Of a DNA stretch of 11,726 bases, positions 5,902 to 9,255 are shown in pieces. This stretch comes from a virus. Positions within the stretch are counted from its first letter, which is position 1, and the number at the start of each line of letters is the position of its first letter. The notes beneath the pieces are model-generated. The model saw only the letters and a list, made by a program, of their open reading frames with translations. It searched no databases and had not been told where the DNA came from. A program made the position numbers and the translations under genes. The stretch lies in the UHGV virus genome UHGV-1586087; one strand, given 5' to 3'.

Positions 5902-6183
5902 ATGACAGCAGAAGAAAAAAGCGTCCTGTCGCTTTTCATGATTGGGGTGCTGATTGTTGTCGGCAAGGTGCTTGCCGGTGGTGAACCCATCACCCCGCGT
6001 CTGTTTATCGGGCGCATGTTGCTCGGTGGTTTTGTCTCGATGGTTGCCGGTGTTGTTCTGGTGCAGTTTCCTGACCTGTCACTGCCTGCGGTGTGCGGCA
6101 TCGGCTCCATGCTGGGTATCGCCGGTTATCAGGTGATTGAGATTGCCATTCAGCGCCGCTTTAAGGGCAGGGGGAAACCGTAA
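5902..6183 (+). CDS. Y: Holin
   Basis: 93 aa with about three hydrophobic helices and a basic C-terminus (QRRFKGRGKP). GGAG 6 nt upstream. Sits directly upstream of the endolysin. Recognised as P2 gpY. Confidence 0.88.
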   Translation: MTAEEKSVLSLFMIGVLIVVGKVLAGGEPITPRLFIGRMLLGGFVSMVAGVVLVQFPDLSLPAVCGIGSMLGIAGYQVIEIAIQRRFKGRGKP

Positions 6184-6680
6184 TGCCGGTAATCAACACG
6201 CATCAGAATATCGCTGCCTTTCTCGACATGCTGGCCGTGTCCGAAGGGACGGCGAATCATCCGCTGACGAAAAACCGGGGCTATGACGTGATAGTCACCG
6301 GACTGGACGGGAAGCCGGAAATCTTCACCGACTACAGTGACCACCCGTTCGCACATGGCCGACCGGCGAAGGTGTTTAACCGTCGCGGTGAAAAATCCAC
6401 GGCCTCCGGTCGCTATCAGCAGCTTTACCTGTTCTGGCCGCATTACCGCAAACAGCTTGCCCTGCCGGATTTCAGTCCGTTGTCACAGGACAGACTCGCC
6501 ATTCAGTTGATCCGCGAACGCGGTGCGCTGGATGACATCCGGGCGGGGCGCATTGAACGCGCCATTTCACGCTGTCGCAATATCTGGGCGTCCCTGCCGG
6601 GTGCCGGTTACGGTCAGCGTGAGCATTCACTGGAAAAACTGGTCACCGTCTGGCGTACCGCTGGCGGCGTACCGGCTTAA
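6183..6680 (+). CDS. K: Endolysin (phage lysozyme/muramidase family)
   Basis: 165 aa; ATG overlaps the Y stop (TAATG at 6181-6185). Recognised as P2 gpK. The catalytic class is taken from knowledge of P2, not from motifs I verified here. Confidence 0.88.
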   Translation: MPVINTHQNIAAFLDMLAVSEGTANHPLTKNRGYDVIVTGLDGKPEIFTDYSDHPFAHGRPAKVFNRRGEKSTASGRYQQLYLFWPHYRKQLALPDFSPLSQDRLAIQLIRERGALDDIRAGRIERAISRCRNIWASLPGAGYGQREHSLEKLVTVWRTAGGVPA

Positions 6681-6694
6681 ACGGAGTAAACACC

Positions 6695-7120
6695 ATGAAG
6701 AAATTATCCCTTTCACTGATGCTGAACGTGTCGCTGGCGCTGATGCTGGCACTGTCCCTGATTTACCCGCAGAGCGTGGCCGTCAGTTTTGTCGCCACCT
6801 GGGCGATTCTGGCGACGGTTATCTGTGTGGTTGCCGGTGGTGTCGGCGTGTATGCCACGGAGTATGTACTGGAGCGCTACGGGCGGGAGCTGCCGCCGGA
6901 ATCGCTGGCCGTGAAGATTGTCACGTCGCTGTTTTTGCAGCCGGTGCCGTGGCGCAGACGGGCGGCGGCTCTGGTGGTGATGGTGGTGACGTTTATCTCG
7001 CTGGTCGCTGCCGGGTGGATTTTTACCGCGCTGATTTATCTCGTGGCGTCGGTGTTCTTCCGGCTGATACGTACGGCCTGCCGTCAGCGTTTTGAGGGGC
7101 GGGAACCATGTCAAAGCTGA
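6695..7120 (+). CDS. lysA: Lysis-timing membrane protein LysA (antiholin-like, multi-pass)
   Basis: 141 aa with three to four long hydrophobic segments (LSLMLNVSLALMLALSLIY, WAILATVICVVAGGVGVYA, AALVVMVVTFISLVAAGWIFTALIYLVASVFF). GGAG 8 nt upstream. Position and sequence match P2 lysA. Confidence 0.82.
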   Translation: MKKLSLSLMLNVSLALMLALSLIYPQSVAVSFVATWAILATVICVVAGGVGVYATEYVLERYGRELPPESLAVKIVTSLFLQPVPWRRRAAALVVMVVTFISLVAAGWIFTALIYLVASVFFRLIRTACRQRFEGREPCQS

Positions 7121-7533
7121 TGATTGTGCTGGTTGTGTTGTTATCGCTGGCTGTGGCGGGACTGTTTCTGGTGAAGCATGAAAACGCCAGCCTGCGCGTC
7201 TCGCTGGACAGGGCAAACAATGTCGCCAGCGGGCAGCAGACGACCATCACCATGCTGAAAAACCAGCTTCATGTTGCCCTTACCAGGGCAGACAAAAACG
7301 AGCTGGCGCAGGTGGCACTGCGTCAGGAGCTGGAGAACGCCGCGAAGCGTGAAGCACAGCGCGAGAAAACCATCACGAGGTTACTCAATGAAAACGAAGA
7401 TTTTCGCCGCTGGTACGGCGCTGACCTGCCTGATGCTGTGCGCCGGTTGCACCAGCGTCCGGCCTGCACCGACGCCAGTGATTGTCCACAACGCCTGCCC
7501 GAAAGTGAGCCTTTGCCCGATGCCGGGCAGTGA
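7108..7533 (+). CDS. lysB: Rz-like inner-membrane spanin (i-spanin) LysB
   Basis: 141 aa with an N-terminal transmembrane segment (LMIVLVVLLSLAVAGLFLV), then a charged coiled-coil-like region and a Pro-rich C-terminus. Overlaps the lysA 3' end by 13 nt. Matches P2 lysB. Confidence 0.85.
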   Translation: MSKLMIVLVVLLSLAVAGLFLVKHENASLRVSLDRANNVASGQQTTITMLKNQLHVALTRADKNELAQVALRQELENAAKREAQREKTITRLLNENEDFRRWYGADLPDAVRRLHQRPACTDASDCPQRLPESEPLPDAGQ

Positions 7534-7678
7534 CCCGCAGACGAACGGCGATTTAAGTGCCGATATCCGGCAGCTTGAAAACGCGCTGGCACGCTGTGCC
7601 AGCCAGGTAAAAATGATTAAACACTGTCAGGACGAAAACGATGCTCAAACCCGACAGCCTGCGCAGGGCGCTGACTGA
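7388..7678 (+). CDS. lysC: Rz1-like outer-membrane lipoprotein spanin (o-spanin) LysC, in the +1 frame overlapping the lysB 3' end and the R 5' end
   Basis: ATG at 7388 with GAGG 7 nt upstream gives 96 aa (MKTKIFAAGTALTCLMLCAGCTS...), with a lipoprotein-type signal, Cys-containing lipobox-like LCAGC and a Pro-rich mature part. The track ORF (7271-7678) is the same frame with a spurious upstream extension. Confidence 0.8.
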   Translation: MKTKIFAAGTALTCLMLCAGCTSVRPAPTPVIVHNACPKVSLCPMPGSDPQTNGDLSADIRQLENALARCASQVKMIKHCQDENDAQTRQPAQGAD

Positions 7679-8108
7679 TGCCGTCACGGTGCTGAAAACC
7701 AGTCCAGAGATGCTTCGGATATTCGTGGATAACGGGAGTATTGCCTCCACGCTGGCGACGTCGCTGTCGTTCGAAAAGCGTTACACGCTCAATGTGATTG
7801 TGACCGACTTTACCGGTGATTTTGACCTGCTCATCGTGCCGGTGCTGGCGTGGCTGCGGGAAAATCAGCCCGACATCATGACCACCGACGAAGGCCAGAA
7901 AAAGGGCTTCACGTTTTATGCAGACATCAACAATGACAGCAGCTTTGATATCAGCATCAGTCTGATGCTGACCGAGCGCACGCTGGTCAGCGAGGTTGAT
8001 GGTGCGCTGCATGTGAAGAATATCCCGGAACCCCCGCCGCCGGAGCCGGTCACCCGCCCGGTGGAGCTTTATATCAATGGCGAACTGGTGAGCAAGTGGG
8101 ATGAATGA
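7641..8108 (+). CDS. R: Tail completion protein R
   Basis: 155 aa; ATG at 7641 lies inside the lysC 3' end. Recognised as P2 gpR. Confidence 0.88.
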   Translation: MLKPDSLRRALTDAVTVLKTSPEMLRIFVDNGSIASTLATSLSFEKRYTLNVIVTDFTGDFDLLIVPVLAWLRENQPDIMTTDEGQKKGFTFYADINNDSSFDISISLMLTERTLVSEVDGALHVKNIPEPPPPEPVTRPVELYINGELVSKWDE

Positions 8109-8553
8109 GTTTAAGCGTTTTGAAGACCGGCTGACCGGACTGATTGAATCGCTGTCACCGTCAGGGCGTCGGCGACTGAGTGCCGAACTGGCGAAACGTC
8201 TGCGTCAGAGTCAGCAGCGTCGGGTGATGGCACAGAAAGCCCCGGACGGCACACCCTACGCGCCACGTCAGCAGCAGAGCGCCAGAAAAAAGACCGGTCG
8301 CGTTAAGCGAAAAATGTTTGCGAAACTTATCACCAGTCGTTTTTTGCATATCCGCGCCAGCCCTGAACAGGCATCAATGGAGTTTTACGGCGGAAAGTCA
8401 CCGAAAATCGCCAGTGTGCATCAGTTTGGTCTGTCGGAAGAAAACCGGAAGGACGGTAAGAAAATTGATTATCCGGCGCGTCCTCTGCTCGGCTTTACCG
8501 GTGAGGATGTGCAGATGATTGAAGAGATTATCCTGGCTCACCTCGACCGTTAG
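8101..8553 (+). CDS. S: Tail completion protein S
   Basis: 150 aa; start overlaps the R stop (ATGAATGA at 8101-8108). Recognised as P2 gpS. Confidence 0.88.
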   Translation: MNEFKRFEDRLTGLIESLSPSGRRRLSAELAKRLRQSQQRRVMAQKAPDGTPYAPRQQQSARKKTGRVKRKMFAKLITSRFLHIRASPEQASMEFYGGKSPKIASVHQFGLSEENRKDGKKIDYPARPLLGFTGEDVQMIEEIILAHLDR

Positions 8554-8584
8554 TTGTGCCATTCCCGACACCTCATCGTCACAT

Positions 8585-8608
8585 TGCCGCCGGTATGACC
8601 CGGCGGCA
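8585..8608 (+). terminator. GC-rich hairpin in the S-V spacer (stem GCCGCCGG / CCGGCGGC, 6-nt loop); candidate terminator or attenuator for the O-to-S operon, possibly overlapping the V late promoter
   Basis: Perfect 8-bp inverted repeat (8586-8593 and 8600-8607), extended by a T-A pair at 8585/8608. The downstream sequence is only weakly T-rich (catccttcccgtt), so intrinsic-terminator status is uncertain. Confidence 0.35.
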
Positions 8609-8619
8609 TCCTTCCCGTT

Positions 8620-9255
8620 ATGAACACTCTCGCAAATATTCAGGAACTCGCGCGCGCACTGCGCAACATGATCCGCACCGGCATTATCGTCGAAACCGAC
8701 CTTAACGCCGGTCGCTGCCGTGTGCAGACCGGCGGCATGTGCACCGACTGGCTTCAGTGGCTGACCCATCGCGCCGGACGTTCGCGCACATGGTGGGCAC
8801 CTTCCGTGGGGGAACAGGTGCTGATTCTGGCCGTGGGCGGTGAACTCGACACGGCGTTCGTTCTGCCGGGGATTTATTCCGGCGATAACCCCGCGCCGTC
8901 TGCGTCGGCGGATGCCCTGCATATCCGTTTCCCTGACGGGGCGGTGATTGAATATGAACCCGAAACCAGTGCACTCACGGTAAGCGGAATTAAAACAGCC
9001 AGCGTGACGGCTTCTGATTCTGTTACTGCCACGGTGCCGGTGGTCATGGTGAAAGCATCAACCCGCGTCACCCTGGACACACCGGAGGTGGTCTGCACCA
9101 ACAGGCTGATTACCGGCACGCTGGAAGTGCAGAAGGGCGGGACGATGCGCGGCAACATTGAACACACCGGCGGTGAACTCTCATCAAACGGTAAGGTACT
9201 GCATACCCATAAACACCCCGGCGACAGCGGCGGCACAACCGGGAGTCCTTTATGA
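8620..9255 (+). CDS. V: Baseplate central spike protein V
   Basis: 211 aa, recognised as P2 gpV. The C-terminal His-rich tip HTHKHPGDSGG is consistent with the metal-binding spike apex described for P2 gpV. Confidence 0.9.
   Translation: MNTLANIQELARALRNMIRTGIIVETDLNAGRCRVQTGGMCTDWLQWLTHRAGRSRTWWAPSVGEQVLILAVGGELDTAFVLPGIYSGDNPAPSASADALHIRFPDGAVIEYEPETSALTVSGIKTASVTASDSVTATVPVVMVKASTRVTLDTPEVVCTNRLITGTLEVQKGGTMRGNIEHTGGELSSNGKVLHTHKHPGDSGGTTGSPL

Follow-up and report, generated by a model that had tools for sequence, protein, structure and literature searches.

Does the reading frame that bridges the end of lysB and the start of R in the viral genome UHGV-1586087 encode a protein, and how much of the DNA at this locus is read in more than one frame? 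The window, which here means the whole stretch of 11,726 nucleotides that was analysed, carries three genes on the plus strand at this site. lysB occupies positions 7108 to 7533 and encodes 141 amino acids of an Rz-like inner-membrane spanin (i-spanin), as given in the ORF list. lysC occupies positions 7388 to 7678, starts with ATG, stops with TGA and would encode the 96-residue precursor of an Rz1-like lipoprotein, that is, an outer-membrane spanin (o-spanin). R occupies positions 7641 to 8108 and encodes a tail completion protein (tail terminator) of 155 residues. A sequence-only reading had earlier placed the three genes at exactly these positions, and both the ORF list and the sequence confirm them. 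Relative to lysB, lysC is shifted to the +1 frame and R to the +2 frame (+1 relative to lysC), and all three forward frames are in use. The start of lysC is 280 nt past the start of lysB, and its end is 37 nt past the start of R.

The locus had also been described as a three-gene overlap. It is accurate that lysC begins inside lysB and finishes inside R, but not a single base is read in three frames, because lysB stops 107 nt before R begins. A triple-coded stretch is thus rejected, and the arrangement consists of two successive pairwise overlaps with, between them, a stretch that belongs to lysC only. On the plus strand, lysB and lysC share 146 nt (7388 to 7533), lysC is the only gene over the following 107 nt (7534 to 7640), which encode its conserved core TNGDLSADI...C..V...K.CQDE, and lysC and R share the last 38 nt (7641 to 7678), which encode LysC residues 85 to 96 and R residues 1 to 12. 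Putative Shine-Dalgarno sites can be read on the same strand for both downstream genes. That of lysC is GAGG at 7377 to 7380, 7 nt 5' of the ATG, and is GAGG in 73 of 85 relatives and GAGA or AAGG in the rest; that of R is AGGA at 7629 to 7632, within lysC and 8 nt 5' of the R ATG.

Over nearly its full length the window is 97-98% identical to P2-like phages (Peduovirus), such as pro483, Salmonella phage MET_P1_103_31 and P2. The gene order at the locus is Y, K, lysA, lysB, lysC, R, S (PF05069) and V. Y encodes a holin (5902-6183; PF04550, E = 2.6e-42), and K (6183-6680) occupies the same position as the endolysin gene of P2 and Wphi, although the K product has no match of its own in the Pfam scan. 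lysA (6695-7120) lies directly upstream of lysB and between it and K. The spanin pair therefore sits in a lysis cassette, with Y, K and lysA immediately 5' of lysB. The source of the window is almost certainly a P2-like (Peduovirus) phage or prophage, whose late region it represents, and the feature is the two-component spanin locus of that phage, with the published 'overlapped' architecture.

Profile searches agree with this assignment. The lysC product matches the NCBIfam equivalog NF038368 (P2_Rz1, Rz1-like lysis system protein LysC) with 127 bits against a cut-off of 27, and LysC residues 4-88 align to model positions 1-85 of 85. It also matches Pfam PF23793 LysC (62.8 bits, cut-off 27, E = 2.9e-17) and PHROG 456 "Rz-like spanin" (E = 3e-31). 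LysB matches TIGR03495 phage_LysB with 172.5 bits (cut-off 92.75) and PHROG 89 (E = 1.7e-60), and its N-terminal transmembrane anchor is placed at approximately residues 4-22 (LMIVLVVLLSLAVAGLFLV), with a mean Kyte-Doolittle hydropathy of 3.1. By the TIGR03495 score and hydropathy, LysB has the profile of an i-spanin, a type II protein with one N-terminal TMD. R matches PF06891 P2_Phage_GpR (E = 6.1e-45). The identities proposed from the sequence, an inner-membrane spanin, an Rz1-type o-spanin and a tail completion protein, are hence supported by TIGR03495, NF038368 and PF06891. On its family matches the middle ORF is P2 lysC, a predicted Rz1-type o-spanin gene. PF23793 is the sole family returned for LysC in the Pfam scan, and no lambda Rz1 family model matched at E <= 0.01. 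Among solved structures, LysB has no match and LysC gave a chance-level match alone (E = 0.24).

The reality of the lysC frame can be judged from its maintenance among relatives. Loci were gathered through gpR and not through LysC, so the sample is not biased towards loci with an intact lysC; 14 came from species-representative genomes (gpR identity 57-99%) and 80 from IMG/VR. Together with the window, P2, Wphi and P22H4, these gave 86 distinct sequences over 7120 to 8108. One rearranged locus (L091) was dropped because its sequence upstream of approximately 7565 is unrelated, and the remaining 85 sequences aligned without gaps. A frame of this kind could in principle be an unexpressed one, kept open by chance or by the composition of lysB and R, since long alternative ORFs are generally possible in GC-rich coding DNA; the 38 nt inside R, which carry no lysC-specific constraint, agree with such a view. 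Against it, lysC is 96 aa long and starts with ATG in 85/85 distinct relatives, down to approximately 65% nucleotide identity, and the frame is also found in other genera. The stretch from 7534 to 7640 is the most telling, as nothing else is coded there. The lysC frame is free of stops in all sequences, whereas the lysB and R frames hold 2-6 stops in every one, and variable sites fall at lysC position 3 in 31/36 cases compared with 29/71 for positions 1 and 2 (Fisher p = 9e-6). The third-position bias repeats in a subset of 8 lineages. Such a pattern marks a translated gene in DNA that holds no other. LysC from the most divergent loci (L012-L017) keeps 67-72% identity to LysC of the window and is better conserved than LysB (approximately 48%) or R (57-63%), and the synonymous sites of lysB are suppressed within the overlap, as described below. 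The conservation data already refute the view that the frame is unexpressed, which is left with practically no chance of being right. Codon-position conservation had been proposed as a check on the gene, with free disruption of the +1 frame among related phages as the outcome that would speak against it; what is found is a +1 frame that is kept, with coding periodicity, across the 85 relatives.

With lysC accepted as a gene, its start codon has to be placed. The mechanical ORF list gives this frame solely as a 135-aa ORF from 7271 to 7678, just as the sequence-only reading had pointed out. It is conceivable that this longer ORF, and not the 96-aa protein, is the true product, as the frame of the window is open from an ATG at 7271 and an ATG is found there in 75/85 relatives. 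The remaining 10/85 relatives lack it, however, and in 31/85 the frame is interrupted once or twice by a stop between 7271 and 7387, frequently by a TGA right before the ATG at 7388. The region from 7120 to 7387 evolves with the periodicity of the lysB frame only, with lysB position 3 variable at 96% of sites. Further, the LysC profiles of NCBIfam and PHROG have their start at the Met of 7388 (the longer query is aligned from residue 39), a signal peptide 39 residues inside a protein would not function, and the GAGG lies 7 nt 5' of 7388. A start at 7271 is thus highly improbable, and lysC is taken to start at 7388.

The 96-aa product begins with a putative lipoprotein signal on the plus strand at 7388 to 7450, which comprises an n-region MKTK (+2), an h-region of 13 hydrophobic residues (IFAAGTALTCLML) and the lipobox L-C-A-G-C. 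The residue predicted to be acylated is Cys21 (codon 7448-7450), followed by Thr-Ser. Residues 15-23 read LMLC[A/V]GCTS in 85/85 relatives, and Cys21 is invariant both in these and across genera. CAGC fits neither the strict lipobox consensus [LVI][ASTVI][GAS]C (DOLOP) nor a PROSITE-style pattern, because position -3 is Cys; as the strict patterns fail, the lipoprotein call rests on homology and invariance. The lipobox-like LCAGC to which the sequence-only reading drew attention is upheld as an invariant and very likely signal of lipoprotein type, albeit one that is off-consensus at -3. This deviation, and a second invariant Cys (C18) inside the h-region, would fit a protein that is exported but is not an outer-membrane lipoprotein, perhaps because signal peptidase I cuts it or because it stays in the inner membrane. 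The invariance of Cys21 argues against this. Lipoboxes at the same site in other genera are LSGC in ENT90, 813R9, Kapieceevirus and Firavirus, LAGC in phiCTX, LCAC in Burkholderia phages and CVGC in 186; the LSGC and LAGC forms of ENT90, Kapieceevirus, Firavirus and phiCTX relatives are canonical and likewise argue against it. The mature N-terminus would be Cys-Thr-Ser, which is invariant in the 85 relatives and has no Asp at +2. Asp at +2 is the established Lol avoidance rule. Lipoboxes of o-spanins are known to deviate from the consensus, and one such deviant, AWAC (in u-spanins), has been verified experimentally (PMC6139136). For Burkholderia LysC homologues, the site that LipoP predicted for signal peptidase II lies between residues 20 and 21 (PMC3091744). 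Taken together, LysC very likely carries a lipoprotein signal, and export without lipidation or without transfer to the outer membrane is very unlikely.

Mature LysC would have 76 residues, of which 8 are Pro (10.5%) and 7 of these fall in the first 31 residues. The Pro-rich body that had been cited in support of an Rz1-type product is thus borne out in part, as the enrichment is confined to the N-terminal third and amounts to 8/76 overall. Four further Cys (C37, C43, C70 and C80) follow Cys21, and every genus examined retains C37, C43 and C70.

The two overlaps differ in how selection acts on them. In lysB, third positions are variable at 85/89 sites outside the overlap with lysC and at 27/48 inside it (p = 3.5e-8), and nucleotide diversity falls from 0.133 outside to 0.071 inside. 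Position 3 of lysB is position 2 of lysC in the +1 arrangement, and a change that is silent in lysB therefore nearly always alters LysC. The codon-position check that had been proposed predicts that such changes are suppressed, as they are here. In the divergent loci, identity is 58-79% for LysB residues 94-141 and 65-83% for LysC residues 1-48, the overlapping parts, compared with 40-66% for the non-overlapping LysB residues 5-93. The lysB/lysC overlap is under real dual-frame selection.

In the overlap of lysC with R, no constraint from lysC is detectable in third-position variability among the 85 relatives. Third positions of R are variable at 9/11 sites in the overlap and at 129/143 elsewhere in R (p = 0.32), and those of lysC in the overlap are the least variable (4/12). 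Identity in the divergent loci is 33-67% for LysC residues 85-96, compared with 58-92% for R residues 1-12. The dual-frame constraint expected for both overlaps is accordingly present in the lysB overlap and not detectable in the R overlap. The length by which lysC runs into R also varies between phages. It is 8 nt in Burkholderia FLC10, KS14 and KL3 (the latter two taken from PMC3091744), 14 nt in Yersinia phage YenM_42.18, 35-38 nt in 813R9, Kapieceevirus and 186, and 68 nt in ENT90. R dictates the sequence here, because R is normally variable, the LysC tail is poorly kept and the run length varies. The conserved core of LysC ends near K-x-C-Q-D-E (approximately residue 83), and its last 12 residues look like a weakly constrained run-on. 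As the lysC/R overlap is governed by R alone, these results suggest that the last 12 or so residues of LysC are dispensable. The 38-nt run into R would best be read as genome compaction in which R sets the sequence.

A run of lysC into R is seen in every close relative and in 7/7 phages of other genera in which R can be placed (8-68 nt). The overlap could couple or tune the translation of R to that of lysC and so link the dosage of tail assembly and lysis, although this is unlikely. Ribosomes translating lysC would cross the R Shine-Dalgarno site and terminate downstream of the R start, and a hairpin at 7585 to 7603 might act together with the overlap. Any such effect would probably be weak or none, because the overlap length varies between genera and the hairpin is not conserved in divergent relatives.

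This GC-rich hairpin, GCTGGCAC-GCT-GTGCCAGC, lies on the plus strand inside lysC and has an 8-bp stem (-14.3 kcal/mol). P2 shares it, and the P2 feature at 8399-8417 annotated as 'putative transcription attenuator; O operon' maps onto it. In close relatives the hairpin is kept with loop changes and one G-U change in the stem, and divergent relatives have different, weaker hairpins at the site. Folded in a context of 91 nt, the region is no more stable than shuffled sequence (z = -0.83), no T-run follows the hairpin, the terminator scan makes no call there, and Rfam has no match anywhere in the window. On these grounds, namely different hairpins in divergent loci, the z score, and the lack of a T-run and of an Rfam match, the hairpin is rejected as a conserved RNA element or terminator.

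The role of the pair in lysis can be outlined from its family and from the literature. The N-terminal transmembrane helix of LysB would anchor the protein in the inner membrane, from where it would extend into the periplasm. Translation of LysC would begin at 7388, at a GAGG-ATG of its own that lies in the +1 frame relative to lysB. LysC would then be exported, acylated at Cys21, cut by signal peptidase II and carried by Lol to the outer membrane, the destination expected with Thr, and not Asp, at +2. In its mature form it would comprise a proline-rich N-terminal linker, then a segment for which the literature predicts a helix in P2 LysC, and four further conserved Cys. On the model of lambda Rz/Rz1, LysB and LysC may bind each other across the periplasm through their C-terminal parts. 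After the holin Y and the endolysin K have removed the peptidoglycan, the LysB-LysC complex would complete lysis by disrupting or fusing the outer membrane. We infer lipidation, outer-membrane location, complex formation and outer-membrane disruption from family membership and published work on P2. The mechanism rests on functional analogy and not on homology to the lambda spanin, because LysC has no Pfam Rz1 match. The lysB/lysC arrangement of P2 was reportedly defined genetically in 2004, when Markov and colleagues are said to have found that P2 LysB and LysC complement a lambda Rz/Rz1 defect and are needed for outer-membrane disruption. An Rz/Rz1-like role has been described for P2 LysB/LysC (PMC3091744; PMC3556154). 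The 'overlapped' class of spanins has P2 lysB/lysC as its type, in which the N-terminal part is rich in Pro and the C-terminal part helical (PMC3556154), and P2 LysB/LysC is listed as a paradigm two-component spanin (PMC6139136).

The lysB/lysC/R arrangement is real, under selection, ordinary, and already known and annotated. P2 lysB/lysC is a textbook example of the 'overlapped' spanin class for which curated NCBIfam and Pfam models exist. The stretch is present in 1611 of 5426 complete E. coli genomes (approximately 30%), and among the matches listed, 8/8 E. coli records carry the PGAP annotation "lysC: Rz1-like lysis system protein LysC" under the match. What is added here is quantitative: the lysB/lysC overlap is dual-constrained, and the lysC/R overlap is set by R alone. 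The value of the analysis lies mainly in annotation, as many public phage records omit or truncate lysC. The gene is unannotated in the records of L-413C, fiAA91-ss, YenM_42.18 and BEK. The record of P22H4 has a 52-aa "Rz1" from an internal Met, those of 813R9 and ST11-OXA245phi3.1 have shortened versions of 56 aa and 48 aa, and that of ENT90 has a 141-aa version from an upstream start. The expectation that gene callers would mishandle lysC is borne out by these public phage records and by the documented problems of gene callers with such spanin genes (PMC6139136). Since records omit or truncate lysC, the conserved 96-aa start, GAGG-N7-ATG, should be used.

Comparison with known systems places the locus closest to P2 itself. 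In P2 (NC_001895), lysB lies at 7922-8347, lysC at 8202-8492 and R at 8455-8922, and the lengths, the frames and the 146-nt and 38-nt overlaps are identical to those of the window; in Wphi (NC_005056) the genes lie at 7923-8348, 8203-8493 and 8456-8923 with the same offsets as in the window. Protein identity between the window and P2 is 137/141 (97%) for LysB, 91/96 (95%) for LysC and 150/155 (97%) for R. The comparison with annotated P2 lysC that had been proposed at the outset thus gives the same offsets to lysB and R and 95% identity. This matches the published account of P2, in which lysC has its start inside lysB, in the +1 frame, and its stop inside R, out of frame with that gene (PMC3091744). 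From window to P2, LysC has five substitutions: K2R, A11V, V24A, R25P and H34P. Residue 25, which is Arg in the window, is the first proline of mature LysC in P2, and Arg-Pro is found at residues 25-26 in 45/85 distinct relatives.

The arrangement extends well beyond Peduovirus. The same frame order, with the lipobox Cys at the same place, is found in 8 other phages from at least 7 other Peduoviridae genera. The order lysB 0, lysC +1 and R +2 is shared by ENT90, Kapieceevirus, Firavirus, phiCTX, Burkholderia FLC10, BEK, KS14 and KL3 (own comparison; PMC3091744), and orf27/orf28/N of phage 186 (Eganvirus) have the same frame order as lysB/lysC/R of the window. In other Peduoviridae genera, lysC begins approximately 150 nt before the lysB stop and finishes inside R, as in the window, and the lipobox Cys and the motifs G/x-C-P/A-x-V-x-x-C and C-A-x-x-V are kept, whereas LysC identity falls to 33-72% and the run into R differs in length.

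Compared with lambda Rz/Rz1, the shared features would be a type II protein of the inner membrane whose partner is a small outer-membrane lipoprotein that contains proline and is encoded in the +1 frame of the first gene, and a role in outer-membrane disruption as the final lysis step (PMC3556154; PMC6139136). The two systems differ in layout, as lambda Rz1 lies entirely within Rz ('embedded') while lysC continues beyond the end of lysB ('overlapped') and reaches the following gene. The o-spanins themselves also differ: lambda Rz1 has approximately 40 residues, approximately 25% Pro and one periplasmic Cys, whereas mature LysC would be a longer protein of 76 residues with 10.5% Pro and five Cys.

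The lysB stop codon TGA (7531-7533) is substituted in 11 of the 85 relatives, a set of distinct aligned sequences of 7120-8108 gathered through gpR. The 11 include the loci L002, L007 and L013-L017 among others; ten carry CGA and one carries TGC. Where the extended frame was read, loss of the stop makes LysB 4-6 residues longer, reaching into the stretch that encodes only lysC (7534-7640). The substitution is of one base and alters LysC codon 49 as well. Codon 25 of LysC (7460-7462) encodes Arg in the window, whereas residue 25 of P2 LysC is the first Pro of the mature protein. P2 lysC alleles with altered lysis timing have been described in which the first two prolines are changed (PMC3556154). 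Both states are common among the distinct relatives, with Arg-Pro in 45/85 and Pro-Pro in 37/85, and the switch between them leaves lysB unchanged, being silent in that frame (CCG/CCC).

The lysC-only stretch also contains a hairpin, GCTGGCAC-GCT-GTGCCAGC (7585-7603), with a perfect GC-rich stem of 8 bp and a free energy of -14.3 kcal/mol. In the P2 reference record, the same bases are labelled "putative transcription attenuator; O operon". There is no T-run 3' of the hairpin. Close relatives retain the structure, differing by loop changes and one G-U change, and divergent relatives have other, weaker hairpins.

P2-type lysB/lysC/R was also found in two assemblies labelled as Gram-positive, Vagococcus sp. 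WN89Y (L007, a 180-kb contig) and Kocuria sabuli (L008, a 1.2-kb contig), with gpR at 84-85% identity. An outer-membrane spanin makes no sense in Gram-positive bacteria, and these assemblies are likely contaminated or mislabelled. In another locus, the P2-like contig IMGVR_UViG_2778261086_000006 (L091), other genes (1-2440) stand in place of everything that precedes window position ~7565, and lysC is reduced to its last ~37 codons ahead of an intact R. The replacing genes, a Cox-like, a gpB-like and a TraR/DksA-type zinc-finger ORF, are recognisable as P2 early-region genes. Either the contig comes from a prophage that is rearranged and defective in lysis, or its assembly is chimeric.

Both PHROG 162 and RefSeq phage records call LysA (6695-7120) "endolysin". 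The protein has a strongly hydrophobic sequence that gave no enzyme-domain match, and NCBIfam names it only "DNZ54_00345 family". The P2 record states that lysA "affects timing of lysis", and PMC3091744 gives LysA four predicted transmembrane domains and treats it as an antiholin. The "endolysin" label looks like a propagated annotation error.

The junctions neighbouring the lysB/lysC/R overlaps, lysA/lysB (7108-7120, 13 nt) and R/S (8101-8108, 8 nt), overlap too, so that all gene junctions from lysA through S are overlapping. Between the end of S (8553) and the start of V (8620) there is a gap of only 66 nt. In the P2 reference this gap is occupied by orf30, a non-essential minus-strand gene of 786 nt, whereas Wphi lacks orf30 at this position, as does the window.
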